64,000 bases of DNA from Trueperaceae bacterium. GTDB taxonomy: Bacteria > Deinococcota > Deinococci > Deinococcales > Trueperaceae. This document shows positions 27,887 to 53,036 of the stretch, one piece after another. The stretch is from NCBI GenBank assembly GCA_035703635.1, contig DASSXV010000075.1, positions 1 through 64,000 on the forward strand, in the 5' to 3' direction. A program made the position numbers and the translations under genes. Under the pieces are notes generated by a model. It ran no database searches, was not told where the DNA came from, and saw nothing but the letters and a program-made list of their open reading frames with translations. The number at the start of each line of letters is the position of its first letter. Position 1 is the first letter of the stretch.

Positions 27887-30286
27887 TCACGGCGCCAGGT
27901 CCGGGAACCGGAAGTCCCAGCTCGAGGTCCCGCTGCCGCCGACGTCGGAGGTGAAAGCGGCACTTCCGGCCAGTAGGCTGCCGCCGGCCCCATCGCTGGC
28001 CACTTTGGGCGACGGGTTGCCGGTCTGGAACAGGGGCACGTTCTCGTCCTTCTTGCCGCCCATGCAGCCGTCGTCGGCGCCGGCGGCAACGTACACGTAA
28101 CCCGAGCCGTAGTAGGTGCCGTCCGGGGAGAGGACCAGCAGGCCGCTCACGTAGGTGCCCAAGTTGGGGTCGGTGTTCACGACCCGTAGGTTGTCGCCCG
28201 AGCTGGTTATCGAGCAGCCGGCCGTGTAGTCGGCTTGGTCCGTCCACGACACCGTTGCGCCGGTCAGGTTGAACTGTTGCGGGTTCTGCGGGTCCTGCAC
28301 CCAGGTGAGGCCAGCGCCCGTGGTGTGCACGTCCCAGGCGATGCCGTTGACGGTATCCGGCTGACTGTAGTCGTAGCTGGTGCCGCCCGTGCAGGCGGCC
28401 ATTGGTTCCAGCGACAAGCCCAGCCCTGCCACGCACACGCCGGCCAGGTTCACGATCACCGTGGAGTTGGCAGTCACCTCGAGCGGCACCTCGACCACCT
28501 TGGCGAGGAGGTCATCGACGACGAACGCCTGGAAGCGGTACTCGCCTCCTGCCAGTCCGGTGGTGTCCCACACGGTGTCGAAGTCGGATTGGTTGGAGGC
28601 GCTTAGGGGAATGGTGCGGAAGAGGGTGGGCTCGTCGGACCCCTGTGACATGTAGATCAGGACCTTGCCGACGTTGTAATGCCCCAAGTAGGTGAGGTGG
28701 TCGGCGTCGAGCGCCACGTGCAAGTGCACTTGGTCGCCTGGCACGGCGTTGGTAGCGGACGCCGTGAAGGTCCCTGACGGCGACTTCGAGATCGGGTAGG
28801 TCTCCTGGAACTGCGCCACCTGCGCGGAGACCCCGATGCCGAGCCACGACAGGAGCTTGTCTAGGTCAGCGCCTATCCCTACGCTGGCGACTAATGACAG
28901 GTCGTAGGCAGAAGCGTAGGCGCTGCTGTCTGCCTGCGCCTCTGCGCTCGCCAGATCGAAGCTCTGCTGCGCGCCGAGTTGCGCCTGCACCAGCTCGATG
29001 TCCGCTAGCCCAGCGATCTGTAACTCGACGCCGGAAGCCAGGCCCACGAAGCCGCTGGCCCCGACCCTGAAGCCGGCTGGCGTCACGAGGTCGAAAGTCA
29101 GGTCGGGTGAGCCCGGCTTCGGCGTGACGTCGTGGAGCAGCGTCAGGCCGCCCGCCTCGTCATAAGTGAAGCCGGCTTTGAGGTCGAGGCCGGAGCTGGC
29201 TTCGAGGTTGACGCTGAGCGCCGCCGCCGTGATCGAACCGGTAACGCTCGCCGCCACCCCTACGGGCACCACCGGCCGCGCGACGAGCGCCGCCACGCCC
29301 GCGATAGGGATAGGGATGCGGAAGAAGACCTTCTTGCACGTGTACGTGCCGGAGTAGCCGGCCTTGACGTTCAGGCCACCAGAGACCTTCTGGGTGAGGT
29401 TACCGTCCACGTAGAGTTCGGTCGGTCGCGGGTCGGTCCCACCATCCTGCAGGTGCAGGTGATAGCGCAGCCCGTTCTCGAGGGTGGTGTTGAGGCCCGA
29501 GATCGACACGTACGTCGCACGGCCCTCGCACTCGATGCCTAGCGCGGCCGGCTGGAGGGTGTTGGCGGGGCCGAATGTCGTCGTGCCCCCGCTGTGGCTG
29601 CGCACGACCAACTGGCCGGCAACGTCTTCTGCGGGCACGACGGGGGCGGCGGCTAGGTCGAAGTCGGCGTTTATCGACAGCCGTTCGAAGAGGTCTTGTG
29701 GAGGTAGCGGGGCGTAGATGATCTCGACGCCGCCGGCGGTGGGCGTTGCCGACACGACCCTACCGCCGATGCTCACCGCCTGGGAGCCGATGATGAGCGT
29801 GCCCGGCTCGAGGCTCGCCGCTCCTGACAGAACCACGCGTTGCTGGATGGGGTTCGCGGTGCCCTCCACCGGCGTGGGCGGCCCCTGCACCTGGTCGTCT
29901 GTGAGGAGCACAGCCCCCGTAGCGGGCTGCGCAACAATTACGAGCGCCGGAAAGGAGGCGACGCCACCCGCGGAGGCCGTAATGGTGGCGCTGCCGAGCG
30001 CGGCGTGCGTGGTCAGCTTGCCGTCCTGGTCAACCTCGACCACGCTAGGGTCGGAGGAGCTCCACGTGACGCCCTCGTCGAGTGGCGCCCCGGTGGAGTC
30101 CGTGACCGAAGCGACCAGGACCGCGGACTCGCCTGCCTTAGTGAAGAGCAGCGCCCCCGGCGCGATGACCACGCTGGCGGCCCGCTGCGGTGGCACGGCG
30201 CCGCCGCCTCCGCAACCGGATAGCAGGACCGACGCGATTACGAGCACCGTACTGCCGAGCCTCACGCATGCCTGCACCCTCGTCAT
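27887..30286 (-). CDS. Large lipoprotein with N-terminal bacterial Ig-like (Big_2) domain
   Basis: AGGAGG RBS before ATG 30286; lipobox LSGC; VTWSSSDPSVVEVDQDG...GSATITASAGG Big_2 pattern; 799 aa. Confidence 0.8.
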   Translation of the reverse strand: MTRVQACVRLGSTVLVIASVLLSGCGGGGAVPPQRAASVVIAPGALLFTKAGESAVLVASVTDSTGAPLDEGVTWSSSDPSVVEVDQDGKLTTHAALGSATITASAGGVASFPALVIVAQPATGAVLLTDDQVQGPPTPVEGTANPIQQRVVLSGAASLEPGTLIIGSQAVSIGGRVVSATPTAGGVEIIYAPLPPQDLFERLSINADFDLAAAPVVPAEDVAGQLVVRSHSGGTTTFGPANTLQPAALGIECEGRATYVSISGLNTTLENGLRYHLHLQDGGTDPRPTELYVDGNLTQKVSGGLNVKAGYSGTYTCKKVFFRIPIPIAGVAALVARPVVPVGVAASVTGSITAAALSVNLEASSGLDLKAGFTYDEAGGLTLLHDVTPKPGSPDLTFDLVTPAGFRVGASGFVGLASGVELQIAGLADIELVQAQLGAQQSFDLASAEAQADSSAYASAYDLSLVASVGIGADLDKLLSWLGIGVSAQVAQFQETYPISKSPSGTFTASATNAVPGDQVHLHVALDADHLTYLGHYNVGKVLIYMSQGSDEPTLFRTIPLSASNQSDFDTVWDTTGLAGGEYRFQAFVVDDLLAKVVEVPLEVTANSTVIVNLAGVCVAGLGLSLEPMAACTGGTSYDYSQPDTVNGIAWDVHTTGAGLTWVQDPQNPQQFNLTGATVSWTDQADYTAGCSITSSGDNLRVVNTDPNLGTYVSGLLVLSPDGTYYGSGYVYVAAGADDGCMGGKKDENVPLFQTGNPSPKVASDGAGGSLLAGSAAFTSDVGGSGTSSWDFRFPDLAP

Positions 30287-30505
30287 CTGCCTGCCTCCTG
30301 GGCCCCGCCCCTTGGACGTTGCGTCTGGCGTGTTTAGGAAAAACAGGGCATTACAGCATGGCTGAGGAGAGTGCGCCGTGATGGGGTTCAAGCGGAAATG
30401 ACAGGGCCACCGGTCTGCTGCGCCCCAACCTGAGCAGGTTCGCGGAGGCGGGTCGTGAGGCGAACGCAGCGCTCCCCTCACGACTCGGATGAGTTGCCCC
30501 TGCCG

Positions 30506-31552
30506 CTACTGCCAGACCGTCTCGAACACGCGCATGAAGTTGCCGCCTAGGACCTTCTGCGTGGCCTCCACGCTGAACCCACGGCGCAGGAGCGAGGCCG
30601 TCAGGTTCGGCCACTCTGACCACTTGGAGAAACCCTTGGCGTGTTTCTGGTCTTCGGGGTAGCCGCCGAAGAACCCCGGGAATGTGCGCTCGAAGCCGGC
30701 GCGGCTGACGCGCACGTAGTGGGTGTCGTATTGGAAGTTGTCTGTTCCGATGGCAGCATGGTCTATTCCAACTAGGTCAACGACGTACTGGATGTGGTCG
30801 ATGTAATCGTCAACAGTGGGCCACTGCTTGCGCTGCTTCTCGATCATGATGGAGTGGGGACAGAGGCCGATGACGCCGCCCGTTGTGGCTACGGCCTCTA
30901 TGAGCTCGTCACTTAGGTTGCGTACGTGGGGGTTGAGCTTCTTCACCCCGGCGTGCGAGACGATTACGGGCGCCTTTGAGTGCCTGGCGGCTTCGAGCGC
31001 GGTGCGTTGACCGACGTGCGAGAGGTCGACGACCACTCCCAGGCGGTTCATCTCCTCAACCACCTTCTGCCCAACGCGCGTGAGTCCGGTGTCGTTCGGC
31101 TCCATGCAGCCGCAGCCGATGGCGTTGCGCTCGTTGTAGGTGATCTGCATGATCTTGACGTCGAGGTTCTTCAACACCCAAAGGTTGCGTGTGTCCTCAC
31201 CGATGCAAGCCAGCCCCTGCGTCGAGAGGATTATCCCCACCCTGCCGCTGCGCTTGGCTTCGTAGATGTCAGAGGCGCGCCGCACGACCAGCGCCTTCTC
31301 GGGGAACGCCTCCGCGATCGCGTGCTCCTGGTAAAGGTTCATCATGGCCTCTGGCATCGACTGGGGGTAGGCGTCAGCGACGATGGAGTCACAGAACGCG
31401 GTCACTCCGCTGGCTAGGATGTGGTCGAACATCAGGTCGTCGATGCCGCCTTGCGGAGGGATCGGCGAGTACAGCTTGCAGAACAGGCCGTCGATGATGA
31501 CGGCGTCGGCGTGCACGTTGTCGGGCGCAACTGGATCAGTGATCTGGCTCAT
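30506..31552 (-). CDS. Membrane dipeptidase (peptidase M19)-like amidohydrolase with non-canonical metal site
   Basis: QITYNERN, VDLSHVG, VSHAG, RNLSDE, IGTD, GGNFMRV; IDGL replaces DxHxD and STQG replaces the bridging Glu. Confidence 0.85.
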   Translation of the reverse strand: MSQITDPVAPDNVHADAVIIDGLFCKLYSPIPPQGGIDDLMFDHILASGVTAFCDSIVADAYPQSMPEAMMNLYQEHAIAEAFPEKALVVRRASDIYEAKRSGRVGIILSTQGLACIGEDTRNLWVLKNLDVKIMQITYNERNAIGCGCMEPNDTGLTRVGQKVVEEMNRLGVVVDLSHVGQRTALEAARHSKAPVIVSHAGVKKLNPHVRNLSDELIEAVATTGGVIGLCPHSIMIEKQRKQWPTVDDYIDHIQYVVDLVGIDHAAIGTDNFQYDTHYVRVSRAGFERTFPGFFGGYPEDQKHAKGFSKWSEWPNLTASLLRRGFSVEATQKVLGGNFMRVFETVWQ

Positions 31553-31577
31553 TACGGGTCTGCCTCCTTGGTCGGAG

Positions 31578-32303
31578 CTAGCTATCGTTCTCTGCGTCCA
31601 CCTGAGCCAACCTCGCGACCAGGCGCACCTCGCCGTGTTCCAACGTTTCGGTGATGGTGCGTCTGACCTTGGCGGGGTCGCGCTCGCGGAGGGCGTCGAG
31701 CAGCACCCTGTGGCGGGCGTCGCTGTAACGGATGTTCTGGGGGGTGAACGGGATGCGCTGCCTTACCTCGAGCAGCACCTCGAACGTCACTTCCCACAGG
31801 CGGGTCATCACAGGGTTGCCTGCCAGTTCGCTTAGGGTGCGGTGAAACTGCCTGTCTAGGCGGACGTGCTGCTGGATGTCGGTGTCCGGGGTCTTCTCCA
31901 TGTCGCGGCAGTACTGCTCCAGCTCCTCGAGATCTTCCTCCGTCAGGTTCCGGGCAGCCAGCTCTCCCAGTTCTGCCTCGAGCAAGCGGCGCGCCTGGTA
32001 TAGGTGCCGGATCTCCAGCTCGCGCAGGAGCATGTCGACGTAGAGGGCTTTGGTCAGCGCCGGCATGCTCATCCCCTCGCTGACGAAGGAGCCTTCGCTG
32101 CGACGCGTGATGAAGCCGAGGGTCTCGAGCGCCTTAAGAGCCTCGCGGACCGATGAGCGTCCAACGCCGAGCTGTTGACTCAGGCCGTGCTCGGTGGGCA
32201 AGCGGTCACCGGGCTTGAGGGTGCCCGTGCTGATCAGCTCCATGACCTGATCGATGACGGTGTCGGAAACGCTGGACCTGTCTACCCGGGTGAATACGGA
32301 CAT
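31578..32303 (-). CDS. GntR-family regulator, FadR subfamily (FCD domain)
   Basis: PGDRLPTE...LGVGRSSVREAL wHTH; RRLLE, DRQFH, AGNP. Confidence 0.92.
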   Translation of the reverse strand: MSVFTRVDRSSVSDTVIDQVMELISTGTLKPGDRLPTEHGLSQQLGVGRSSVREALKALETLGFITRRSEGSFVSEGMSMPALTKALYVDMLLRELEIRHLYQARRLLEAELGELAARNLTEEDLEELEQYCRDMEKTPDTDIQQHVRLDRQFHRTLSELAGNPVMTRLWEVTFEVLLEVRQRIPFTPQNIRYSDARHRVLLDALRERDPAKVRRTITETLEHGEVRLVARLAQVDAENDS

Positions 32304-32367
32304 TCCACATTCTGCAGCAAGCTGCAGTCTCCTCTCCGTAGCTGCGGTCGCCCAAGGACGCGCCGTA

Positions 32368-32421
32368 TTGACAGCCACATAGCATGGCCATATTATCCTA
32401 TCTACAGATTGTCTGACAATC
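32368..32421 (+). promoter_or_regulatory. Sigma70 promoter TTGACA-17-TATTAT followed by FadR-type palindrome GATTGTCTGACAATC
   Basis: -35 at 32368-32373, -10 at 32391-32396, 7-1-7 perfect palindrome at 32407-32421 between the divergent regulator and operon. Confidence 0.85.
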
Positions 32422-32487
32422 AGTCAATCGCACGGCCCTCGGGTTCCCGACGATGGAGCCCGACCGCCACCATAGGAGCGAGACAAC

Positions 32488-33552
32488 GTGTACCAGGCGT
32501 TCGATTTCGGACTGGACGAGGCGCAGGAGCAGCGCGCGGTGGCGCTGCACTCCGAGGCCTTCCTTATCGACGGTCTCGGTGGATCCATGCTCATGCGCCC
32601 GGTGCCAGACGTTGACGGCGCAGACAGGATCGACCAGTACCGGCACAACGGGGTGAGCGTCAGCGTCGAGACCATCGCAATGCCAGGCGAGGACGCCACG
32701 GCGACCATCCGCCGCGTCTTCGACTACCTTTGCCTCGACGAAGTGGCTGCCGGCAGGGCACGGCGGGCCAAAAGCATCGCCGATCTCTTGCGGCATCACG
32801 CCGACAGCGTCCTGAGTCTGGTGTATGGGCTACAGGCGGCCGACCCGTTCGAAGGCTCTACCTACTTGGTGAAGGTGTTCCACGAGTTGGGGGTGCGCGT
32901 CGCCAACCTCGTCTACAACCAGCGCAACCGCCTGGGTGACGGCTGCCTCGAGAACGCCAATCAGGGCCTGACCGCGTTCGGCCGCAGCGTGGTCCTTGAG
33001 ATGAACCGCGTAGGCATGACCGTCGACCTCTCCCACACGGGCGAGCGGACCTCGCTTGACGCGGCCGCCTGCTCCCGAGCTCCAGTGGTGTTCTCGCATT
33101 CCTGCGCCAAGGCTTTGACCGACCACCCACGCAACCTGACGGACGAACAGATCCGCGCCGCCGCGTCCACGGGCGGCCTCATCGGCCTGTGCCCCCACTC
33201 GCAGTTCTGTGAAAGTCGAAGCGGCGTACGCCCAACGCTTGAAGACTTCCTTGATCACATCGTCTACGTGGTCGACCTAGTCGGGGTGGACCACGTTGGC
33301 ATCGGCACCGACCTGTTCGGAGGCAAGACCTTGGGTGAGTCAGTGTTCCGCTTCGAGTTCGGGAGTCAAGTGCCCGGGGCCTGGGGCGGTTACGGCATCG
33401 ACGAGAAGTACGTAGCGGGGTTCGACAACGTCTACCACTGGCACAACGTCGCGCGCGGCCTCGTGGCGCGCGGCTTCGGTGACGAGGAAGCCCTCGCCAT
33501 ACTGGGCGGCAACTGGCTGAGGGTCTTCGACAAGAGTTGGAGTGCAACATGA
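32488..33552 (+). CDS. Membrane dipeptidase (peptidase M19)-like amidohydrolase with non-canonical metal site
   Basis: LVYNQRN, VDLSHTG, FSHS, RNLTDE, IGTD, GGNWLRV; IDGL and GLQA substitutions; AGGAG RBS. Confidence 0.85.
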   Translation: MYQAFDFGLDEAQEQRAVALHSEAFLIDGLGGSMLMRPVPDVDGADRIDQYRHNGVSVSVETIAMPGEDATATIRRVFDYLCLDEVAAGRARRAKSIADLLRHHADSVLSLVYGLQAADPFEGSTYLVKVFHELGVRVANLVYNQRNRLGDGCLENANQGLTAFGRSVVLEMNRVGMTVDLSHTGERTSLDAAACSRAPVVFSHSCAKALTDHPRNLTDEQIRAAASTGGLIGLCPHSQFCESRSGVRPTLEDFLDHIVYVVDLVGVDHVGIGTDLFGGKTLGESVFRFEFGSQVPGAWGGYGIDEKYVAGFDNVYHWHNVARGLVARGFGDEEALAILGGNWLRVFDKSWSAT

Positions 33553-34535
33553 GCAGCTTCCGTCTCCAAGGGTTGGAAGTCGCACGCGGTGACAGGGGCA
33601 GAACGCGTTTGCCCGTCGCCGACCTTGCGGGCGGCTACAACCTAAGCGTGCCCCTCCACGTTGTGCACGGCGCGAAGGACGGTCCGACACTGCTGGTCGT
33701 TGGCGTGGTGCACGGCGAGGAGATCTTCGCCGTCGACGCCATCAGGCTGGCACTGGCGAAGATCGACGCCTCGCGCCTCGCGGGGACGATCATGGCCGTG
33801 CCCGTGGCCAACCCACCCGCGTTCGCGGCCCAAACGCGCAACATGCCGCTCGACATGCTCGACCTCAACCGCCAGTTCCCCGGCAGTTCGAACGGCTGGC
33901 TGAGCGAGCGCATCGCCGCCACCATCAGCCCACTCATAGACCGCAGCGACTGCCTCATACATATAGATGGGGGCAGCCTCGAGCGGGTAATCCATTACGT
34001 GTTCGTCAAGTCAGACGGTTCACCTAACGACGAAACTGAACGGCTTTCCCGCGCCTTCGGCCTCAAACTCCTCTACCGTGGAGCCCATTCGCACGGATCC
34101 ATCACCAGCTACGCCGCGGGTCGCGGTATCCCGGCTGTGCTGGCTGAAATCGGCGGCAGCACCCTCTACGCGGATCCGCGCTACTTGCAGAGCGCCGCCG
34201 GTGGGGTGATCAACGTCATGCGCGCGCTCCACATGCTCGACGAAGCCCCTGAGGCTACCAGCGGGCAACTGCTCCTTACCAAGCGAACCCTGGTGCGCGT
34301 ACCCGTTGGCGGGATCCTCCACCCCGCCGTCGGCCTCGAGGCGATAGACCGCGAACTGGCGGCGGACACGCTGCTCGGCACCGTCATCGATCCATACACA
34401 TTGGAAGAAGTTGGAGCCATCCGGACCCCCTACCCCAGATCGGTGCTGCTTCAGATGCGGGTTCTGCCCTCAGCGGTGCAACCCGGGGACTACGCCTTCA
34501 TCATCGCCGACCTGGCTTCTGCAGAACCACAGTGA
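33549..34535 (+). CDS. Succinylglutamate desuccinylase/aspartoacylase (AstE/AspA, M14-like) family protein
   Basis: VHGEE, VPVANP, DLNRQFPG, AEIGG; ATGA overlap; IHIDGG instead of the usual DLH. Confidence 0.88.
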   Translation: MSSFRLQGLEVARGDRGRTRLPVADLAGGYNLSVPLHVVHGAKDGPTLLVVGVVHGEEIFAVDAIRLALAKIDASRLAGTIMAVPVANPPAFAAQTRNMPLDMLDLNRQFPGSSNGWLSERIAATISPLIDRSDCLIHIDGGSLERVIHYVFVKSDGSPNDETERLSRAFGLKLLYRGAHSHGSITSYAAGRGIPAVLAEIGGSTLYADPRYLQSAAGGVINVMRALHMLDEAPEATSGQLLLTKRTLVRVPVGGILHPAVGLEAIDRELAADTLLGTVIDPYTLEEVGAIRTPYPRSVLLQMRVLPSAVQPGDYAFIIADLASAEPQ

Positions 34536-34659
34536 CTTCGAGCACGCGAGCTGGCGCGCACTTCGCCAGCAGACGGAAGGAGGAGCGCCCGCCCTAATTA
34601 GTCGACTTCGTTAGCACGCCGGGGGGCAACACGCTAGACGTTACTCGGAGGCACCGCAA

Positions 34660-36189
34660 ATGCGACGAAATAGCTTCATCCTCACGCTCCTGGCAACCCT
34701 CCTGCTACTGGGCTCGGTCGCCCACGCGCAGGGAACCGAACCGACAACGGTGACGATCGCCCTCACCGACGACCCGCCATCCGGCGACCCACACAAGACG
34801 AGGGGAGCGAACGGCGGCCACCTGCTTTTCAACCTGTTCGACGGCCTCGTGGCGCTTAGCGGCGACATGACGACGATCATGCCGGCGCTCGCCACATCGT
34901 GGGAGCAGGTAGACGACCTGACCTGGAGCTTCACACTTCGTGAGGGCGTGAAGTTCCATAACGGGGAGCCGTTCACCGCCGCGGCGGTGCAGTACTCCAT
35001 CACCCGCATCCTCGACCCTAACGCAGTGCGTTTCAACACTGACTACAAGCAGATAGGCGAAGTTGACGTGGTTGACGACTACCACGTCATCATCCACACC
35101 AAGGTTCCCGACCCGAACTTCATCGCCAAGATGGCCGGCTTGCACATCGTGCCTCCCGTCTACACCGCCTCAGTGAGCGAGGAAGAGTTCGGCTCTCACC
35201 CCATCGGCACGGGTCCATACCACCTAGTCGAGTGGACCCTCGGGCAGCGCCTCGTCCTCGAAGCCAACGACGACTACTGGAACGGCCGTCCGACCGTCGA
35301 TCGCCTGGTCTTCCGCCCCATCCCCGAAGCTTCGACGCGCCTGGCGGAGCTGCAGGCCGGCACCGTCGATCTCATCGTCGGCCTCAACTACGACGCCATC
35401 CCGCTGCTCGACGCCGATCCCAACCTGCGGGTGGAGGCAAACACCGGCCGCCGCACCGTGATCATGCACATGGACCTGCTCAACGGCGCCAAGCCACTCC
35501 AAGACGTGCGCGTGAGGCAGGCCATGAGCTACGCCATCGACCGGCAGCTGCTCATCGACTCGGTCCTCAACGGTTACGGCACGCCACTGGCCACCATCTT
35601 CCGGCCCGACATGGCAGGCTACTCGGCAGACTTCCAGCCGTACCCATACGACCCGGAGCGCGCCCGCGAGCTACTTGCGGAAGCTGGTTACCCGGACGGC
35701 TTCTCCATCCGTTTCATGACGAGCGACGGCATCGTGACCAAGGGCGTTGAGGTCGCTGAGGCGCTCGGCGCCATGCTGGGCGACGTCGGCATCAAGGTCG
35801 ACGTGCTTCCCGTAGCTCTCCAAGTGATGCGCGACATGTACATCGGCAACCCCGAGCCGGCCAGCGGCAAAGTGGAACCGCTGTTCATGTTCAACTACGG
35901 CGCTCCCACGCCGGACGCTACGAGTCCGCTCAAGGCGCTCGTGCAGACTGGCGGCATCGAGGCGTTCTACAACGACCCCACCATGAACGCGCTGATCGAC
36001 GAGTACGCCTCCGAAATGAACCCCACCACGCGCGCAAGCGTCGCGCACGACATCCAGGAGAAGCTCTACAACGACCTTCCGATCATCGCGCTCTACCTCC
36101 AGCTCGACACGTACGGGGTAAGCGAACGCCTCAACTGGACCGCCCGCAAGGACGAGTACGTCCTCGGCAAGGACATAAGCATCCGCTAG
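34660..36189 (+). CDS. Peptide/nickel ABC transporter substrate-binding protein (SBP_bac_5)
   Basis: Signal peptide ending AHAQ; PALATSW, LREGVKFHNG, IGTGPY, DVRVRQA. Confidence 0.93.
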   Translation: MRRNSFILTLLATLLLLGSVAHAQGTEPTTVTIALTDDPPSGDPHKTRGANGGHLLFNLFDGLVALSGDMTTIMPALATSWEQVDDLTWSFTLREGVKFHNGEPFTAAAVQYSITRILDPNAVRFNTDYKQIGEVDVVDDYHVIIHTKVPDPNFIAKMAGLHIVPPVYTASVSEEEFGSHPIGTGPYHLVEWTLGQRLVLEANDDYWNGRPTVDRLVFRPIPEASTRLAELQAGTVDLIVGLNYDAIPLLDADPNLRVEANTGRRTVIMHMDLLNGAKPLQDVRVRQAMSYAIDRQLLIDSVLNGYGTPLATIFRPDMAGYSADFQPYPYDPERARELLAEAGYPDGFSIRFMTSDGIVTKGVEVAEALGAMLGDVGIKVDVLPVALQVMRDMYIGNPEPASGKVEPLFMFNYGAPTPDATSPLKALVQTGGIEAFYNDPTMNALIDEYASEMNPTTRASVAHDIQEKLYNDLPIIALYLQLDTYGVSERLNWTARKDEYVLGKDISIR

Positions 36190-36202
36190 TCGCCGACGCT
36201 CT

Positions 36203-36232
36203 CGTTACCCCGGGCCTTCGTCCGGGGTAACG
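36203..36232 (+). terminator. Stem-loop after SBP gene (mRNA stabiliser or partial terminator)
   Basis: CGTTACCCCGG...CCGGGGTAACG, 11-bp perfect inverted repeat. Confidence 0.65.
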
Positions 36233-36268
36233 GGTCTTCGTCGCTAGCGGAGCGGATCGCGAGGAGAG

Positions 36269-37186
36269 ATGGGTCGCTACGTAGTCAGCCGTTCGTTGCA
36301 GGCCGTGTTCGTGATCCTGGCGGTGCTGGTGGTCACGTTCATCATCGTGCGTGCCGTTGGCGACCCGTCGAGGTTGCTGGTGAGCCCGGAAGGTTCTCGC
36401 GAGAACCTCGCGCAGATACGCCACGTCCTTGGGCTCGACGCCCCACTGCAAGTTCAGTTCGTGAGGTTCGTCGGCGACGTCGTCAGAGGCGATTTCGGCA
36501 AGTCGTTCACGTTCGGTAGGCCCGCCTTGCAACTCGTACTTGAACGCGTGCCCGCCACCCTGCTACTCGCCCTTACCGCTCTCGCCCTCGCGGTGCCTAC
36601 CGGCATACTGCTCGGGATGGTGTCCGCCGTGAAACGGAACACCATCTACGACAACCTGGCGACCACCCTGGCCGTGTTGGGGCGCGCCGTGCCCAACTTC
36701 TGGCTCTCCATCATGCTCATCGTCGTGTTCGGCGCATACCTTAAGTGGTTACCGCCATCCGGCTACGGCACCCCACTTCACATCATCATGCCGTCCGTGG
36801 CGCTCAGCGCAGGCTTGGCTGCCATAGTCGCAAGGCTGACGCGGTCCAGCCTCCTGGAAGTCATGAGTCAGGACTTCGTGCGCACGGCCAGAGCCAAGGG
36901 CCTTAGCGAGTCGCGCGTCCTCACCCGCCACGTGCTACGCAATGCCCTCATCCCCATAGCCACTGTCGTTGGCCTGCAGGCTGGTCACCTCCTGGGAGGC
37001 GCCATCATCACTGAGACGATCTTCGCATGGCCCGGCGTTGGCAGACTCCTCACCCAGTCGATCTACAACTACGACTACCCCGTGGTGCAAACGAGCGTCT
37101 TCATCATCTCCGTCACCTTCGTGTTCCTCAACCTGGCCATCGACCTCCTCTACGCCCTGATCGACCCGCGCATCCGCTATGACTGA
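36269..37186 (+). CDS. Peptide ABC transporter permease (DppB-like)
   Basis: GDFGKS, PNFWL, RTARAKGL, RNALIP, ETIFAWPGVG, DPRIRY. Confidence 0.95.
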   Translation: MGRYVVSRSLQAVFVILAVLVVTFIIVRAVGDPSRLLVSPEGSRENLAQIRHVLGLDAPLQVQFVRFVGDVVRGDFGKSFTFGRPALQLVLERVPATLLLALTALALAVPTGILLGMVSAVKRNTIYDNLATTLAVLGRAVPNFWLSIMLIVVFGAYLKWLPPSGYGTPLHIIMPSVALSAGLAAIVARLTRSSLLEVMSQDFVRTARAKGLSESRVLTRHVLRNALIPIATVVGLQAGHLLGGAIITETIFAWPGVGRLLTQSIYNYDYPVVQTSVFIISVTFVFLNLAIDLLYALIDPRIRYD

Positions 37187-38048
37187 CACCGCGACCAAGA
37201 AGCGCGCGAAGACCGGCCTACGCGGCTTGCTCAACAGCCGCACCGCCACTGCAGGAGCCGTCATACTCATCTGCCTCGTGGTGTTGGCGGCCTTCGCTCC
37301 CCTAATCGCCCCACACGACCCCGCCAAGCAGGACCTGCGCGCGCGACTCGCGCCGCCTGCTTGGGTCGCCAAGGGCAGCATCACGCACCTGCTGGGCACG
37401 GACCAACTCGGCCGGGACATCCTCTCCAGAGTGATCTACGGCACGCGGATCTCGCTGCTCGTGGGGGTATCCGTCGTCCTGCTCGCAAGTACGGTCGGCA
37501 CGCTGCTCGGGTTGTTGGCTGGCTTCCTAGGAGGCCGGGTAGACGCGCTGCTCATGCGCATCGTCGACGTCTTCCTTGCCTTCCCGTTCCTGTTGCTTGC
37601 CATCGTCATCATGGCCATGCTCGGGGCCAGCCTCACCAACATCATCCTGGTGCTGGCGATCACGGGTTGGGTCGACTACGCCAGGGTAGTCAGGTCGCAA
37701 GTGCTATCCGTCCGGGAACTCGAGTACATCACGGCGGCCAAGGCGCTGGGTGCCCGCAACCCCGTCATCATGCTCAAGCACATCCTTCCCAACGTCGTTG
37801 CCTCCGTAATCGTGATCGGCAGCCTGCAGTTGGGTTCGGTCATCATCGCCGAGGCGTCACTGACGTTCCTCGGCCTCGGCATCCCGCCGTCCATCCCGAC
37901 CTGGGGCTCCATGCTCGCTTCAGGTCGCGAGTACTTCGTCCTTGCCTGGTGGCTTCCTACGTTCCCGGGTATCGCCATCGTCCTGACGGTGCTGTCAGTC
38001 AACTTCCTCGGCGACTGGCTGCGTGACGTGTTCGACCCCACCCTGTGA
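37179..38048 (+). CDS. Peptide ABC transporter permease (DppC-like)
   Basis: LGTDQLGRD, YITAAKALGA, HILPN, EASLTFLGLG, GDWLRD. Confidence 0.95.
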   Translation: MTDTATKKRAKTGLRGLLNSRTATAGAVILICLVVLAAFAPLIAPHDPAKQDLRARLAPPAWVAKGSITHLLGTDQLGRDILSRVIYGTRISLLVGVSVVLLASTVGTLLGLLAGFLGGRVDALLMRIVDVFLAFPFLLLAIVIMAMLGASLTNIILVLAITGWVDYARVVRSQVLSVRELEYITAAKALGARNPVIMLKHILPNVVASVIVIGSLQLGSVIIAEASLTFLGLGIPPSIPTWGSMLASGREYFVLAWWLPTFPGIAIVLTVLSVNFLGDWLRDVFDPTL

Positions 38049-38085
38049 AGCACAAGACTCGCTCCTCACCCTCAAAGGAGTACGC

Positions 38086-39108
38086 ATGACAGACCAAACC
38101 CCTTCCACGGCCGAACCCAAGCGGTCACATCGCCTGGCGCCGGTCACGACTCGGGCATCAGGCGAAACGCTCAGCCTGGCCATCCACACCATCACAGGGG
38201 CGCAACCCGGCCCCACCCTTGGTCTCTTCAGCACGTCGCACGGGGACGAGGCCTTCACTGTGCAGGTGATAAAGGCGGTGCTCGAGCGCGTTGACCCCGC
38301 CCACCTACGCGGGACCATCCGCGCCCTGCCGGTAGGCAATCCGGTCGCCTTCGAGTCGTACACGCGCTCCACGGGCCAAGGCATGAACACCGACAAGACG
38401 AACCTGAACCGCGTCTTCCCTGGCAACCCCCGAGGTTGGCTCACGGAGCAGATCGCCCACGTCATCAGCGAGGAGTTCGTCCCTGGGCTCGACGCGCTCA
38501 TCGACTTCCACTGCGGCAACTCGGAGACGGCGATCGACTATGTGCTCCTCGAGGCCGACGACAGCGCTGCGGGGCGCCGTTCGACCGAATTGTCAAAGCT
38601 TTGCGGCAGCGACCTGCTCTACACCGCCCCGACGCCGGAGCAGGGCGGCACCCTATCGCAGTACGCGAAGAGCCTCGGGATACCGGCGGTCATAGCCCAG
38701 TGGGGTGGCAACATCCAGAACCCGAGCGCGTACGTTGACCGCTGCTTCGTGGGCGTCCGCAACGTGCTCATCCACTTGGGCATGCTCGACGGCGACATCG
38801 TCCTGCCCGAGCGCCAGACCATGCTAAGCGGTGCTCGTACGCTGTTGTCTCCTCAGAACGGCGGGCTGTTCTTCCCCGTCATCGGCTTCGATCAGTTGAG
38901 CCAGACGGTGCCGCGCGGCACGGTACTGGGACGCGTCTATTCCCCCCACACGCTGGAACTATTGGAGGAGCTGCGAGCACCATACGATCAGAGTGTGGTG
39001 ATCATGCTCCGCGGCACCCTGTCGCGCGTGAACCCTGGCGACTACGCCTACATACTGTGCAACGGCGCCACGGCCGAAACCATCGACAACAAGAAGAGGG
39101 CCAACTGA
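38086..39108 (+). CDS. AstE/AspA (M14-like) family protein with the catalytic Glu position occupied by Gln
   Basis: SHGDE, LPVGNP, NLNRVFPG, IDFH; PAVIAQWGG; AAGGAG RBS before ATG 38086. Confidence 0.88.
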   Translation: MTDQTPSTAEPKRSHRLAPVTTRASGETLSLAIHTITGAQPGPTLGLFSTSHGDEAFTVQVIKAVLERVDPAHLRGTIRALPVGNPVAFESYTRSTGQGMNTDKTNLNRVFPGNPRGWLTEQIAHVISEEFVPGLDALIDFHCGNSETAIDYVLLEADDSAAGRRSTELSKLCGSDLLYTAPTPEQGGTLSQYAKSLGIPAVIAQWGGNIQNPSAYVDRCFVGVRNVLIHLGMLDGDIVLPERQTMLSGARTLLSPQNGGLFFPVIGFDQLSQTVPRGTVLGRVYSPHTLELLEELRAPYDQSVVIMLRGTLSRVNPGDYAYILCNGATAETIDNKKRAN

Positions 39109-39329
39109 TGACGCCTGAAGCGACGGACTCCGCCCTGGACCTGGACATCGAACAAGTACGGTTCTTGCTCAAGCAGCAGGGATATGTGATCCCAGAAGAG
39201 GAACTCGTGGAAGTAACGGCCAGCCTGAACGCCCTCATCGAAGGCCTGAGTCACATGGAGCATTACGGCGAGCTCCAGAACGAGCCCTGGCCCACCCTCG
39301 TCGGCTACACGGGAACCGCGGATGCTTGA
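39108..39329 (+). CDS. Small acidic amidase partner protein (AtzG/GatC-like, 73 aa)
   Basis: TGATG coupling to the upstream gene, overlaps the amidase start; helical acidic sequence ending NEPWP. Confidence 0.6.
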   Translation: MTPEATDSALDLDIEQVRFLLKQQGYVIPEEELVEVTASLNALIEGLSHMEHYGELQNEPWPTLVGYTGTADA

Positions 39330-40755
39330 CGAGCACTACGCCTTCATGTCGCTGACGGACCAGGCCGCACTCATCCGCACCGGTGAGTTGTCGCCCGTGG
39401 CCCTCGTCGAGCTCTATCTCGACCGTATAGCTAAGTACAACGACCGCATCAACGCATTCATCACGGTGGCGGCCGACTCGGCGCTGGCCAGGGCGCGGCT
39501 AGCGGAGCAAGAGATCAAGGCTGGCGACTACCGCGGCCCGCTTCACGGCATCCCCGTCGGCGTCAAGGATCAGATGCAGATTAACGGCATGCGCGTGACG
39601 GGCGGTTCGAAGATCTACGCTGACGCCATCGGCACGCGCGACGCCACCGTCATCGCGCGACTGAGGGCGGCTGGAGCGGTCCTGCTCGGAACCCTCAACA
39701 CCCACGAGTTCCACATGGGCCCGACCGTCAACTTCCCTTACGGCACACCGCGCAACCCGTGGAACCTCGAGCGCAACCCCGGCGGTTCGTCGAGCGGCTC
39801 CGCCACTGCGCTCGCAGCTGGCCTCGTCAGTGCGGCCCTCGGCGGCGACACCGGCGGCTCGATTAGGGGGCCAGCCACGGCCTGCGGTGTGGTGGGACTG
39901 AAGCCGACCTGGTCACGCGTGAGCCGTGACGGCGTGTTCCCGCTCGGCTGGACGCTTGACTGCGTCGGGCCGCTAGCCAGGACGGTGCCAGACGCGGCCG
40001 CCGTGCTTCAGGTCATCGCCGGATACGACCCACTCGACGCAACAAGTAGTCGGAAGGCAGTGCCAGATTACGGCCAGGCCCTCACAGACACCTCCTTGAA
40101 GGGCCTACGCATCGGCGTGGTCAAGGAGATGTACAGCGACGACATCACGGGCCCCGACGCGCTCGCGGCCGTGAAGGGCGCGCTGGACTTCCTCGAAGCC
40201 AAGGGTGCCATCCTCAGCGCCGTCAGCTTGCCCCTCATGCGGGAGACGCGCTTCGTCTCACCCGCCCTCACGAAGCCGGAGGCGGCCAGCTACCACCGGA
40301 GGAACCTCCTCGAGCGCTACCTGGACTTCGACTACAACACCCGGGTCAGCTCCATGGTAGGGGCCATCCTGCCCGCTGGCCTCGCGTCGCGCGCGCAGCG
40401 CGCCAGGGTCGTGATCGGGCAACAAGTGCTGGATGCCCTAGAAGACGTCGATGTACTGGTGGGCGCCGGTTCGGCCGGAGGAGCCGTGCCCATCGTTCCC
40501 CGCCCGCCGATCAAGACCAAGCAAGAGGCGTTGGAGAAGATCTACGGAGTCGGCAAGGCGGCAGGCCAATACACCCGCGTATTCAGTCTTGCCGGCACAC
40601 CGGCGATGGTGGTGCCGGCCGGCTTCGATCACGAAGGCCTGCCGCTCAGCCTCCACATCGCTGGGGGGCTATTCGACGAAGCGACAGTCTTACGTGTAGG
40701 TAACGCCTTCCAACGAGAGACGAATTGGCACGGGAGGCGACCGCCCTTAGCTTGA
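39322..40755 (+). CDS. Amidase-signature family enzyme (GatA/AtzE-like)
   Basis: GVKD (Lys), PGGSSSGS, GGDTGGSIRGPA: Ser-cisSer-Lys triad intact. Confidence 0.93.
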   Translation: MLDEHYAFMSLTDQAALIRTGELSPVALVELYLDRIAKYNDRINAFITVAADSALARARLAEQEIKAGDYRGPLHGIPVGVKDQMQINGMRVTGGSKIYADAIGTRDATVIARLRAAGAVLLGTLNTHEFHMGPTVNFPYGTPRNPWNLERNPGGSSSGSATALAAGLVSAALGGDTGGSIRGPATACGVVGLKPTWSRVSRDGVFPLGWTLDCVGPLARTVPDAAAVLQVIAGYDPLDATSSRKAVPDYGQALTDTSLKGLRIGVVKEMYSDDITGPDALAAVKGALDFLEAKGAILSAVSLPLMRETRFVSPALTKPEAASYHRRNLLERYLDFDYNTRVSSMVGAILPAGLASRAQRARVVIGQQVLDALEDVDVLVGAGSAGGAVPIVPRPPIKTKQEALEKIYGVGKAAGQYTRVFSLAGTPAMVVPAGFDHEGLPLSLHIAGGLFDEATVLRVGNAFQRETNWHGRRPPLA

Positions 40756-40772
40756 CGGGAGAAGGGCGCAGA

Positions 40773-40801
40773 AGCGGGGCCGCTACGGTAGCGGCCCCGC
40801 T
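40773..40801. terminator. Probable bidirectional terminator hairpin between convergent operons
   Basis: AGCGGGGCCGCTAC-G-GTAGCGGCCCCGCT, 14-bp perfect inverted repeat. Confidence 0.75.
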
Positions 40802-40883: not shown

Positions 40884-41777
40884 CTAGTCTGCATAGAAGA
40901 CCTTGTTCAAATCCATGGACGCCTCGATCGTCGTGAGTCGCTCCATCGCCGAGCGGTGTAGCCGCTTGCCAACTGCTGCAACTAGCGCGTGCGCCAACGC
41001 CACGACAGCGGTATACGACTGAATGAACGCCTCAGACTGCATGGCGACTAGCATCACGTAATCAGCCCGCGTGGCCAGTGGCCCAATAGGATCGTCCGTG
41101 ATGGCGACGACCTGGGCGGATGCCCTCCGGGCCGTATCGATCGCGTTGATGGTATGCACCGATTGTCGCGAGAAGGCGAACCCGATGACCACGTCCTGAG
41201 GTCCAACGTCTATCAGGTGGTCTATCAACATGTCCGCCTGGTGGGTGAGTGCAGTCACGCTCGGGCGCAGCATGCTTAGGGAGTAGCCTAGAAGCTCGGC
41301 GCCTGGCGCCGCACCACGCATGCCGACGGTGACTACGCGACGGGCGCCAGCAATCACAGATATGCACTTTTCAAACTCGTCTGGGTCGACCTGCTGCCGA
41401 GTGATTTGAAGGTTGTATGCGTCTGTATCGAAGGCGGCTTGCAATGGGTTCGAGTCGCTCGACCCACGGGATACGGCTTCTTCAAGGCGGTCCGGAGTAA
41501 CGCGAGTAAGCCGCTTGCGAATCTCCTCTTGTACCTCAGTTTGCAGCGCTGGGTAGTTAGCGTAACCAAGCGCCTTGGAGAAGCGGAGCACGCTCGATTC
41601 ACTTACGCCCACCAGTTCACTTAATCGCGCCGCTGGGAGGAAGGCGGCATCAAGCGGTCGCAGCGCCAGATGCTCGCCGATGCGCCGTTCAGACCGGGTC
41701 ATCTCACCAAGACGCGTCTTGATGCGGGCGATGAGTGGACCGTTCGGTAGCTGCAATGCGCTTGAGTCGCCTGTCAT
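40884..41777 (-). CDS. MurR/RpiR family transcriptional regulator (HTH plus SIS)
   Basis: MTRSERRI, VSESSVLRFSKALGY, DVVIGFAFSR, VAITD. Confidence 0.92.
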   Translation of the reverse strand: MTGDSSALQLPNGPLIARIKTRLGEMTRSERRIGEHLALRPLDAAFLPAARLSELVGVSESSVLRFSKALGYANYPALQTEVQEEIRKRLTRVTPDRLEEAVSRGSSDSNPLQAAFDTDAYNLQITRQQVDPDEFEKCISVIAGARRVVTVGMRGAAPGAELLGYSLSMLRPSVTALTHQADMLIDHLIDVGPQDVVIGFAFSRQSVHTINAIDTARRASAQVVAITDDPIGPLATRADYVMLVAMQSEAFIQSYTAVVALAHALVAAVGKRLHRSAMERLTTIEASMDLNKVFYAD

Positions 41778-41825
41778 ACTCCCCAACTCCTCCTTCAGTC
41801 AACTGACGCTCTGGAGTCTTCTCGG

Positions 41826-42722
41826 TCAGCTAACGACGCGTGGGTCAAGAAGGTCCCGTAACCAATCACCAACAAAGTTGATGGCGAGTACCGTAACCAT
41901 TATTGCTGCGCCCGGCAAAGTCGTCAGCCACCAAGCAACCCTCATGTAATCGCGTCCCTCTGCCAACATAGAACCCCATGTCGGAATACTCACGTCTACG
42001 CCGAGCCCAAGGAACGAGAGCGCCGATTCCGTGAGGATGTTGGTGGCGATGGAGAACGACGCCACGACGACGACGGTATTCAAGACGTTGGGGAGCAGAT
42101 GGCTCAACATCACCCGTACACTGCCCATGCCTAACGCCCGACACGCCTCGATGTGCTGCCTCTCCATCAAGCCTTTGGCCTCGCTGCGCACTACCCTGGC
42201 GAACACATCCCAACGACCCACGCCTAACACCAGGATCAGCTGCGGGAGCCCAGAACCTAGTGCGGCAAGAACGGTCAGCGCTAGGAGAATGAACGGAAAC
42301 GCGAGCTGGGCTTCTACCAGCCTCATGAGCACGTTGTCGAGCCAGCCGCCGTAGTACGCAGCTGTCAGGCCGATGGTAAGGCCGAGTACCAGCGAGATGG
42401 CGACAGCGATCAACGAAACTGAGAGTGAGACCCGGGCGCCATAGAGCAGGCGTGCGAACACGTCGCGGCCCAGCGCGTCTGTCCCGAGTATGTGAAGCTG
42501 ACCCTTGGTCGTGGTCAAAGGGGCTTGTAAGCGACTTCCAAGAGATATGGCGCGGGGGTCTGCATCGGAGATGAAGCCAGCCCCTAGTGCAGCGGCCACC
42601 AGAATGACGAGCACGATCGCGCCAATCAGGCCGTTCCTGTGGGCGAGCAGCTTGCGAAGCCAAGGGGCCATCCTGGCCCCAGCCGGTCCCTTATCTGCGC
42701 GCCTGGTCGCTGGAAGGGCCAT
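41826..42722 (-). CDS. Peptide ABC transporter permease (DppC-like)
   Basis: LGTDALGRD, HLLPN, ESALSFLGLG, GDWLRDLLDPR. Confidence 0.95.
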   Translation of the reverse strand: MALPATRRADKGPAGARMAPWLRKLLAHRNGLIGAIVLVILVAAALGAGFISDADPRAISLGSRLQAPLTTTKGQLHILGTDALGRDVFARLLYGARVSLSVSLIAVAISLVLGLTIGLTAAYYGGWLDNVLMRLVEAQLAFPFILLALTVLAALGSGLPQLILVLGVGRWDVFARVVRSEAKGLMERQHIEACRALGMGSVRVMLSHLLPNVLNTVVVVASFSIATNILTESALSFLGLGVDVSIPTWGSMLAEGRDYMRVAWWLTTLPGAAIMVTVLAINFVGDWLRDLLDPRVVS

Positions 42723-43636
42723 CAGTAGCGCAACCTCGGGTCGACGACGGAATGAGTAATGTCAACCAGGGCATTCACCAGAACGAACCCGATAGCAAGG
42801 AACGCGACGATCGTCTGCAATAAGGGGAAATCCTTAGTTACGATCGCTTGCACCGCCAATCGCCCAACGCCGGGCCAAGAGAAGACTGTTTCCGTGATCA
42901 CTGAGCCGCCAACGAAGCTGCCCATCTGGATCCCTATTACCGTCAGTGTTGGGCCGATAGCGTTGCGTAGCGCGTGCTTGAACAGGAGCGCCGCCTTGGG
43001 CACCCCTTTGGCTTGCGCCGTGCGCATGTAGTCTTGCCCAAGAACCTCGAGCGTGGAAGATCGAATCAATCGAACGTTGTAGGCCAATGGGAACAGCGAG
43101 AGGGTGAGAGTGGGCAGCACGAGGTGAGCCCACGTTCCCCGGCCGGACGCCGGGAACCAGCCGAGCATCACCGAGAAGACCATGATCGCTAAGCTTCCCA
43201 GCCAGAACACCGGCGCCGCCTGCCCGATAAGGGCCACGTTCATGATGAGGTTGTCTACCCAGGAATTCTTACGTGAAGCGGCCAGCACTCCTGCAGGGAT
43301 GGCGAGGATGGTTCCTAGGGTCAAGCTGAGCGCAGCCAGCTGCAGCGTGGCTGGCAGCCTCGCCGAGAAGAGGCGTACGTTGGGCTCTTGATGGTAAAGG
43401 GAGGTGCCGAAGTCGCCATGTAGCGCTCGCCAGAGGAAAGTACCGTACTGGGCGATAAGCGGCTTATCGAAACCCATGCGGACGCGAAATGCTTGGATCT
43501 CCTGCTGCGTCGCGCCTTCGCCCAGCATCAAGCCCGCTGGGTCACCCGTAAGGAACGTGGTGAGGAACACGAAGAGCGTGACCAAGATGACCACAGCGAT
43601 CGCCTGAAGGGCACGATTCACTAGGAGTCTCATCAT
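42722..43636 (-). CDS. Peptide ABC transporter permease (DppB-like)
   Basis: GDFGTS, PVFWL, RTAQAKG, ETVFSWPGVG, DPRLRY. Confidence 0.95.
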   Translation of the reverse strand: MMRLLVNRALQAIAVVILVTLFVFLTTFLTGDPAGLMLGEGATQQEIQAFRVRMGFDKPLIAQYGTFLWRALHGDFGTSLYHQEPNVRLFSARLPATLQLAALSLTLGTILAIPAGVLAASRKNSWVDNLIMNVALIGQAAPVFWLGSLAIMVFSVMLGWFPASGRGTWAHLVLPTLTLSLFPLAYNVRLIRSSTLEVLGQDYMRTAQAKGVPKAALLFKHALRNAIGPTLTVIGIQMGSFVGGSVITETVFSWPGVGRLAVQAIVTKDFPLLQTIVAFLAIGFVLVNALVDITHSVVDPRLRY

Positions 43637-43665
43637 CGTTGCCTACTCCTCACCATCGCTCGGAC

Positions 43666-47948: not shown

Positions 47949-48019
47949 GGACGCGGACGGCTGTGGCCAGAGGGCGTTGGGACTAACCGAGCTCACAACG
48001 TCAACAGGCAAGCGTTGCG

Positions 48020-49264
<1,245 letters not shown>

Positions 49265-49370
49265 TCACAGGCTTGCACCACTATTAGCCTCAGTGCTCGT
49301 GAGGTCGGAGGCCGCGCGATTACAGTTTCGAACGACTCAACCGACTTCGACGAGGCGGCAACAGCGCCTC

Positions 49371-49715: not shown

Positions 49716-49797
49716 CTAGGCGGACATAATCATGAAAGGCGTGCTGCGAGTTCACCGGTAGGGCACCAAAGACCAAAACTCCGTACCACATGTCCGA

Positions 49798-50388: not shown

Positions 50389-50517
50389 CTCTTGTGACGA
50401 CAGTGTAGTCCAGATTCCATTGTCTTAACCTAGGGGCGTGCACCGAGCCGCGCCGGGTGCGCTCTCTCCCAACTTGCGTGGAGCATTACAGAGGTTCAAT
50501 GCCTGCGACAGGCGGCC

Positions 50518-52961: not shown

Positions 52962-53036
<75 letters not shown>

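Follow-up and report, generated by a model that had tools for sequence, protein, structure and literature searches.

A GntR/FCD-regulated gene module of a Trueperaceae bacterium with a putative two-subunit amidase and atypical metallohydrolases, probably directed at a peptide-like nitrogen compound

Introduction

Trueperaceae, a family of the phylum Deinococcota, are common in saline, alkaline and compost habitats. A stretch of 64,000 nucleotides from one Trueperaceae genome (GenBank assembly GCA_035703635.1, contig DASSXV010000075.1, positions 1 to 64,000; hereafter the window) carries, between positions 30506 and 40801, a cluster of ten genes in which a transcriptional regulator and an importer are combined with an amidase and with four metallohydrolase homologues, at least three of which depart from the active sites of their families. 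The locus raises the question of what kind of compound such a set takes up and breaks down, and of whether hydrolase homologues with altered catalytic positions still hydrolyse it. An earlier reading of the letters of the window (the sequence-only reading) had proposed a dedicated uptake and stepwise hydrolysis pathway for an amide, ureide or N-heterocyclic compound, in preference to ordinary peptide scavenging. Following it up in the source genome (2.9 Mb, 97.65% complete), in related genomes and in metagenomes, we arrive with moderate confidence at a module, repressed by its own GntR-family regulator with FCD ligand domain, that would take up a peptide-like nitrogen compound, N-blocked and/or amidated and bearing a carboxylate, and hydrolyse its C-N bonds step by step. 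Within this module, sequence and profile comparisons support a two-subunit amidase, built like GatCA and AtzEG, whose small subunit belongs to a family without Pfam match.

Results

All ten open reading frames (ORFs) were found undisrupted, by the ORF list as well as by profile scans against Pfam and NCBIfam, at the positions and of the kinds that the sequence-only reading had given, so that its divergent unit of intact genes stands. On the minus strand lie the genes for the regulator and for an M19-like amidohydrolase (A); on the plus strand follow those for a second M19-like amidohydrolase (B), an AstE/AspA-like deacylase (A), a solute-binding protein, two permeases, a second AstE/AspA-like protein (B), a 73-aa protein and the amidase. 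Directly upstream of the module is an 864-aa ORF (27887-30481, minus strand) with one Big_2 domain and otherwise no family match, which we do not count as part of the module because the module flanks differ among relatives.

The regulator (31578-32378, minus strand) combines a GntR helix-turn-helix (PF00392, 61.6 bits) with a C-terminal FCD domain (PF07729, 100.2 bits) and thereby fits the definition of the FadR subfamily. Its ORF reaches a GTG at 32378, and its true start is probably Met26 at about 32303, because relatives align from residue 18 onwards only. Against the NCBIfam equivalog models it stays below every cut-off, with NanR as the best match (121 bits, cut-off 260) and with 25.5 bits, against a cut-off of 189, for FadR itself, the fatty-acid regulator. 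The rightward operon is preceded by a sigma-70-type promoter, TTGACA-17-TATTAT (32368-32396, plus strand; 11/12 matches), and the regulator and M19-like A transcript by a divergent promoter-like site, TTGTCA-16-GATAAT (32392-32419, minus strand; 10/12 matches); altogether the promoter scan returned three promoter-like sites in 10.7 kb, where 1.1 were expected. Just downstream of the rightward -10 and over the leftward -35, whose hexamer it contains, lies a predicted operator palindrome (32404-32424, with arms at 32404-32413 and 32415-32424 and the core TTGTCTGACAA at 32409-32419), which we take to match the operator type GT-N-AC of the GntR family. In the 2.9-Mb genome this core has a single occurrence, with about 0.8 expected by composition. 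Moreover, the TTGTCNGACAA core is kept in six of six related loci, in which both promoter hexamers are conserved or nearly so and the remaining spacer has diverged. The clean promoter and operator palindrome described earlier are thus corroborated by comparison. At the other end of the operon, where a terminator had been claimed, a perfect hairpin with a 14-bp stem is found at 40773-40801, between the convergent amidase and RpiR genes (-33.9 kcal/mol, z = -4.66). Lacking a T-run, this hairpin went unreported in the terminator scan, and we list it as a likely terminator without U-tract.

The last two genes of the operon encode the putative two-subunit amidase, namely the 73-aa protein (39108-39329, plus strand), a putative GatC-like small subunit, and an amidase-signature protein of GatA/AtzE-like type (39322-40755, plus strand; PF01425, 346.6 bits), the putative catalytic subunit. 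The two ORFs overlap by 8 nt, and the start of the small one overlaps the stop of AstE/AspA B (TGATG). The motifs of the Lys/cis-Ser/Ser triad are present in the amidase (KDQ, GGSSSGS and GGSIR, aligned with GatA), in agreement with the intact triad noted before. Its family is less sharply drawn: the AtzE models NF006631 (304.1 bits, cut-off 461) and TIGR02715 (297.4 bits, cut-off 425.75) and the gatA model (302.5 bits, cut-off 481) all remain below threshold, and the protein is 35% identical to AtzE, 36% to the GatA-like protein of its own genome and 35% to another paralogue.

The 73-aa protein gave no sequence match in Pfam (PF02686, the GatC family, included), NCBIfam or PDB, and a word-based search returned 31 relatives, of which all named ones are Trueperaceae. 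A profile search of 1.84 billion representatives, by comparison, recovered 33 clusters (50% identity) at E <= 0.001, mostly of proteins 63-120 aa long that share the signature L..QGY.vP..dL.EiT.rLNAl...l......EPWP. Two long matches carry the small domain fused N-terminally to an amidase domain. The first, P0057 (553 aa), has an amidase part 49% identical to the amidase of the window and heads a cluster of five members, four of 553 aa from NCBI, JGI/IMG and Logan and a fifth that is a 378-aa partial; the two named members, P0057 itself and the partial, are Dehalococcoidia amidases. The second, P0044, has 587 aa and a cluster of two members. Such natural fusions argue for a physical partnership of the two chains.

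Homology to GatC emerged when profiles were compared with each other. Against 18 aligned GatC proteins of relatives, hhalign gave 80% (E 1.4e-5) for the close homologues of the small protein and 94.6% (E 7.2e-8, 56 columns) for the wider family; the match joins residues 11-66 of the small protein to residues 2-57 of GatC, that is, to its N-terminal half, and the C-terminal half is absent. The AlphaFold model (mean pLDDT 73, above 90 over residues 11-40) shows a short and then a long helix joined by a loop, and Foldseek placed GatC chains at ranks 1, 2, 4, 6, 8 and 24, all weakly and none better than E 0.056. Comparison of the two small-protein alignments with AtzG of plasmid pADP-1 was negative (1.2% and 0.8%), a result of little power because GatC against AtzG, run as control, was negative too (0.1%). 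Considering that the small protein is homologous to the N-terminal half of GatC and occurs fused to the same kind of amidase, the two-component amidase of the sequence-only reading is supported as a predicted two-subunit enzyme. A role in a GatCAB transamidosome finds no support: the profile scan revealed no GatB-type gene in the cluster, a genuine GatC (contig C86) and a GatA-like gene (contig C42, 461 bits) are encoded elsewhere in the genome, and the small protein has no counterpart to the second half of GatC. For GatC-like proteins, work on yeast GatF was the sole match in the portions of the literature that the search returned.

Conservation was followed along two routes. A scan of species genomes with AstE/AspA B as query gave eight loci, seven of which, all in Deinococcota, show synteny that is full as far as the contigs reach, while the eighth, in Nitrospira, matches at 25% identity and has no other module gene. 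Some homologue of AstE/AspA B was present in 81 of the 301 Deinococcota genomes sampled. The metagenome scan, run with the amidase alignment, kept 80 loci; the synteny of the module recurs on five contigs (L078, L079 and L081-L083) that range from near-identical down to 80% identity. Furthermore, a diverged version with 27-54% identity to the proteins of the window was found on contig L086. Next to a divergent GntR gene it has genes for a solute-binding protein and two permeases, an M19 of the Gln type, an AstE/AspA whose catalytic Glu is replaced by Phe, the small protein and the amidase, and also for a D-2-hydroxyacid dehydrogenase. In all seven metagenome loci of at least 3.5 kb whose amidase is 50-58% identical, L086 among them, a small gene lies directly upstream of the amidase gene. 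Together with the regulator that the cluster brings along, the synteny in seven of eight genome loci and the diverged version on L086 mark a self-contained, co-conserved unit, in support of the sequence-only reading. Searches of plasmids for look-alike clusters yielded matches at 28-36% identity in other contexts (Neorhizobium, Rhizobium), none of them with the full set.

Related genomes also hold paralogous modules. The same-genus genome G187 has them 20 kb upstream of its orthologous cluster, in an island where two permeases are accompanied by a small gene (45% identity) and an amidase (56%). Besides another three AstE/AspA paralogues and another two GntR/FCD regulators, this island encodes an M20 peptidase, a RidA-like protein and an Amidohydro_2 protein. 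Genome G227 has one 19-kb contig on which six AstE/AspA-like and three M19-like genes surround importers. The module accordingly looks like one member of a family of modules for peptide-like or N-acyl-amino-acid compounds.

Both AstE/AspA homologues clearly exceed the PF24827 cut-off of 25, AstE/AspA A (33537-34535, plus strand) with 68.3 and AstE/AspA B with 70.1 bits; the ORF of the latter spans 38023-39108 on the plus strand, and its likely start is the ATG at 38086, which is preceded by AAGGAG. The motifs H-x-x-E and NRxFPG are retained in both. In AstE/AspA B the zinc ligands His, Glu and His are all kept, and Gln stands at the position of the catalytic Glu, the general base, where its 'iaQwgg' aligns to 'ttElgg' of DoeB and 3na6; the same Gln appears in 15 of 15 orthologue matches, some from the same genomes reached twice. 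AstE/AspA A retains the catalytic Glu and the H..E zinc ligands, and its third motif reads H-I-D where relatives have D-x-H. This H-x-D reading is common to all eight A-type matches, yet it is the less certain deviation because HMMER, by opening a 2-residue gap, aligns His to His. Of the deviations proposed earlier, that of B is therefore firm, and that of A depends on the alignment. Among the 55 AstE/AspA matches in Deinococcota loci, 20 are fully canonical, and besides the Gln group other paralogues depart at the Glu position with V, M, G, F, N or Y, residue states that at low identity were read from BLAST alignments and may be shifted. As a separate observation, the Trueperaceae islands L072 (G187:C28:78500-98499) and L074 (G227:C55:1-19000) are crowded with AstE/AspA-like, M19-like, GntR/FCD and importer paralogues, and many of their AstE/AspA copies have G, F, M, V, N or Y for the catalytic Glu. 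That AstE/AspA B is a recent pseudogene is ruled out by the conservation of ORF and Gln at 74-85% identity in all orthologues, and an obligate heteromer of A and B is unlikely, considering that the B-type gene occurs without an A-type gene in loci L009 and L086. Neither protein is a DoeB equivalog (TIGR02994, 66.7 and 74.2 bits against a cut-off of 402.7), and no ectoine genes lie near the cluster.

The two M19-like proteins (A, 30506-31552, minus strand, 25 nt downstream of the regulator gene, PF01244 255.3 bits; B, 32488-33552, plus strand, 249.9 bits; cut-off 26) are 39% identical to each other, and the best PDB match of both is 2i5g (E 7e-46 for A, 1e-43 for B); both are of the Q-type, which 2i5g represents. 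In canonical members such as Sco3058 and human DPEP1, the HxD motif, a bridging Glu and two His form the binuclear zinc site, an Arg binds the carboxylate and an Asp is catalytic. In A and B the HxD is absent (IDGLFC and IDGLGG), Gln takes the place of the bridging Glu and Tyr that of His150/152; retained are both beta-site His (DLSH, xSH), the Arg of the RN motif and the Asp of the GTD motif, so that A, followed through the positions of HxD, Glu, His152, His, His, Arg and Asp, reads L,C,Q,Y,H,H,R,D. The Gln is conserved in the orthologues of A and in all aligned orthologues of B, and the RN and GTD motifs occur in A, B and all aligned M19 relatives. On a plasmid of Rhizobium leguminosarum three 'dipeptidase' genes adjoin ABC importers, and two of them show the same Gln-type pattern. 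Because 2i5g, from Pseudomonas, and these plasmid proteins share the deviations, they are a trait of a widespread subfamily; the non-canonical M19 sites reported by the sequence-only reading are thus real in A and B but not peculiar to the cluster. Among the five M19 homologues of the genome, the one on contig C30, which adjoins another peptide importer, is fully canonical, the one on C52 retains the Glu and that on C51 belongs to the Gln type as well.

The importer consists of an exported family-5 solute-binding protein (SBP_bac_5, Dpp/Opp/Gsi/Nik/opine type; 34660-36189, plus strand; PF00496, 325 bits) and two BPD_transp_1 permeases, one of DppB/NikB type (36269-37186, plus strand; PF00528 and PF19300) and one of DppC/NikC type (37179-38048, plus strand; PF00528 and PF12911). 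The cluster contains no ATPase gene. In the whole genome about 27 sets of family-5 binding protein and permeases stand beside two OppD/F ATPase pairs only, on contigs C32 and C16 and each within its own operon, so that ATPases are probably shared. The nearest solved structures of the binding protein are 5u4o, 8upi, YliB/GsiB, AccA and NikA.

The window contains three Dpp/Opp-type importers (34660-38048, 41826-46261 and 60477-63889), each encoded by genes for a binding protein and two permeases but by none for an ATPase. The second belongs to the neighbouring convergent operon (40884-46261, minus strand), which is headed by an RpiR/SIS regulator. Besides the family-5 binding protein and the two permeases, this operon encodes a protein of 377 aa (43666-44799) whose faint match to AstE/AspA (E 0.0025) may mark it as a third and very diverged homologue. 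Downstream of these importer clusters, an integrase-core (rve) ORF (48719-49264, minus strand) is followed by several ORFs without family match, and the region (47655-53863) may be the remnant of a mobile element.

Discussion

How the module might work can be outlined from its parts. The GntR/FCD repressor would bind the single TTGTCTGACAA palindrome and silence both transcripts, and a ligand, probably substrate or product, would lift this block; repression of both transcripts would follow from the position of the palindrome between the rightward -10 and the start of the operon and over the regulator's own -35. The exported binding protein and the two permeases would then import the compound, with OppD/F-type ATPases encoded elsewhere. 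Going by family chemistry, the amidase of GatA-like and GatC-like chain would release a primary amide as ammonia, AstE/AspA A would take an N-acyl group or a terminal residue off a substrate with a free carboxylate, and the Q-type M19-like proteins would cleave, or at least bind, the dipeptide-like amide that remains. A primary amide in the substrate is likely because the amidase is of the GatA/AtzE type, and an N-acyl or terminal-residue bond because of the AstE/AspA-type enzyme. What we infer from these families is in which order the steps run, whether the three degenerate homologues are active and to which class the substrate belongs. As an illustration of that class, and not as a claim, N-acetylglutaminylglutamine amide would need exactly these three bond types; a catabolic pathway for it was not found in the literature, judged by titles or abstracts.

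Several observations weigh against this proposal. Of the 301 Deinococcota genomes sampled, only seven others have an orthologue of AstE/AspA B with at least 78% identity, and the gene set varies. In locus L007 M19-like B is missing, deleted to about its first 30 codons, which run straight into AstE/AspA A (L007:5131-5371). In L009 the module is rearranged, its small gene and amidase lying together with an M19-like gene upstream of the regulator, and an A-type AstE/AspA is absent; in L010-L012 a third M19-like gene follows the amidase; L086 likewise has no gene of the AstE/AspA A type. On four metagenome contigs (L087, L089, L090 and L091) the small-plus-amidase pair has neither an M19 nor an AstE/AspA gene nearby. 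The importer does not reveal the substrate either: the nearest solved relatives of the binding protein bind glutathione, peptides, agrocinopine (opines) or nickel complexes, and the protein itself is below the cut-off of every NCBIfam equivalog model, so that its substrate is not readable from it. Finally, hydrolysis by three of the four metallohydrolase homologues is an assumption, because M19-like A and B are without the bridging Glu and the HxD, and AstE/AspA B is without the catalytic Glu. Regarding the same loci, the genome of L007 also holds L009 as a second, rearranged copy of the module, and L010 has an extra, Glu-bearing AstE/AspA. The neighbours of the pair on the four contigs are genes for a molybdenum hydroxylase, a Rieske oxygenase, an aldo-keto reductase and an Amidohydro_2 protein. 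Because the pair is found there among unrelated genes, it is a movable two-gene unit, whose link to M19-like and AstE/AspA-like genes is recurrent and not obligatory.

The simplest competitor to a dedicated module is ordinary peptide scavenging, in which common di- or oligopeptides would be imported and the hydrolases would be divergent peptidases of broad specificity. We regard it as rather unlikely, although the importer is of the Dpp/Opp type, one of about 27 in the genome, a canonical M19 dipeptidase does adjoin another such importer on C30, and the M19 and AstE/AspA families act on peptide-like amides. A scavenging system, on the other hand, does not readily account for a dedicated FCD-type regulator with a single predicted operator in the genome, or for an amidase of primary-amide type (GatA/AtzE-like) with a putative small subunit of its own, and a plain dipeptidase or carboxypeptidase would be expected to retain the binuclear-site ligands lost in both M19-like proteins and the catalytic Glu lost in AstE/AspA B. 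The choice against peptide scavenging made by the sequence-only reading is nonetheless undecidable from these data, because importers of the same type are so numerous in the genome and paralogous modules occur in relatives. For a ureide or N-heterocyclic substrate, which that reading had also considered, nothing specific came to light, the amidase scoring below the AtzE cut-offs and no AtzH-type gene being present. A ureide or s-triazine-type pathway, in which a carboxy-ureido intermediate would be the target of an AtzEG-like amidase pair and a ring compound would be opened or trimmed by the remaining hydrolases, is in our view very improbable. It is true that the best NCBIfam match of the amidase is the AtzE family (304 bits), that small subunit and amidase are arranged as in AtzG-AtzE, and that ABC transporters and genes for nitrogen compounds frequently accompany atzG-atzE clusters, as stated in excerpts of PMC6219798. 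The score, however, is under both AtzE cut-offs (461 and 425.75) and equalled by the gatA model (302.5), the 35% identity to AtzE is no higher than that to the GatA-like protein of the same genome, and the cluster has no gene for AtzH/DUF3225, AtzD, AtzF, a hydantoinase or an allantoinase; the lack of similarity between small protein and AtzG points the same way as a weak test only, the GatC control being negative as well.

A different kind of explanation concerns the degenerate homologues themselves. AstE/AspA B might be a non-hydrolysing subunit that holds the substrate or serves as scaffold in an assembly of enzyme and pseudo-enzyme, in the place of GatB beside the GatC-like and GatA-like chains, and the same may apply to one of the Q-type M19-like proteins or to both; we consider this idea unlikely. 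The Gln of AstE/AspA B is invariant in its 15 orthologue matches with all zinc ligands retained; on L086 the Glu-less (Phe) AstE/AspA lies directly upstream of small protein and amidase and has no Glu-bearing partner; in G187 a Glu-less paralogue (Met) adjoins the paralogous small-plus-amidase pair; and stop and start codons overlap along AstE/AspA B, small protein and amidase. Deinococcota paralogues with V, M, G, F, N or Y at the Glu position, often in multi-paralogue clusters, would fit as well, and human DPEP3 and PvdM are examples of non-catalytic M19 homologues. Conversely, the pair follows an M19-like gene and not AstE/AspA B in L009, and it does without any AstE/AspA gene in L087 and L089-L091; the residue states at low identity come from BLAST alignments that may be shifted, and a Gln could still support another chemistry. 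The most explicit form of the pseudo-enzyme idea, which we put forward as a speculation of low probability, is that the degenerate homologues are working non-catalytic parts: AstE/AspA B, as an M14-type zinc domain in the place of GatB that holds or presents the substrate, would form with the 73-aa chain and the amidase a three-protein machine derived from GatCA, and the Q-type M19-like pair would be a binder or a single-metal enzyme. If true, this machine would be a new way to build amide-cleaving complexes, spread over at least Deinococcota and Chloroflexota.

Under the preferred reading, a regulated module for uptake and stepwise hydrolysis, the protein families and the principle of their architecture are already known. 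New are the small-subunit family without Pfam match and its fusions, its occurrence outside Proteobacteria, the combination of families and the conserved loss of the catalytic Glu in an AstE/AspA gene next to an amidase pair. In agreement with the sequence-only reading, no described pathway with this combination was found in the open-access literature, subscription journals and supplements lying outside the search. The locus defines a putative amidase small-subunit family, a second and sequence-distinct lineage of the kind of partner that ranges from GatC to AtzG, which should aid the annotation of many 'hypothetical' genes of 60-80 aa beside amidases. It also offers a conserved and well-regulated test locus for the role of the Q-type M19-like (2i5g type) and Glu-less AstE/AspA homologues, both of which are widespread, and provides an ecological pointer to an unrecognised nitrogen-rich substrate that Trueperaceae may use.

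Placed beside known systems, the importer resembles the ABC importers of Dpp/Gsi/Nik/opine type in its family-5 binding protein and its two permeases of DppBC/NikBC type, and differs from them in that the cluster has no ATPase genes. The M19-like proteins share with the 'amidohydrolase' 2i5g of Pseudomonas aeruginosa the missing HxD, the Gln for Glu and the Tyr for His150/152, and our literature searches turned up no function for 2i5g. DoeB (N-acetyl-L-2,4-diaminobutyrate deacetylase, PDB 6twl/6twm), AstE and aspartoacylase have the same catalytic domain, PF24827, as AstE/AspA A and B, from which they differ by the D-x-H that reads H-x-D in A, subject to the alignment, and by the catalytic Glu that is Gln in B. 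The closest parallel to the amidase pair, next to GatCA, is AtzE-AtzG, the 1-carboxybiuret hydrolase of Pseudomonas sp. ADP (PDB 6c62), in which the gene of a chain of about 70 aa likewise lies directly before an amidase-signature gene. In excerpts of the study of this enzyme, AtzG is described as non-catalytic and as forming an obligate heterotetramer with AtzE, which is insoluble without it, and the pair is thought to derive from GatCA (PMC6219798, Esquirol et al. 2018). Compared with AtzG, the small protein of the window has no detectable similarity to it, a comparison that is equally negative for GatC, and no Pfam match, and no AtzH gene follows the pair here. Moreover, fused forms exist for the pair described here, and while AtzEG belongs to Proteobacteria, its counterpart in the module is hosted by Deinococcota, with relatives in Chloroflexota.

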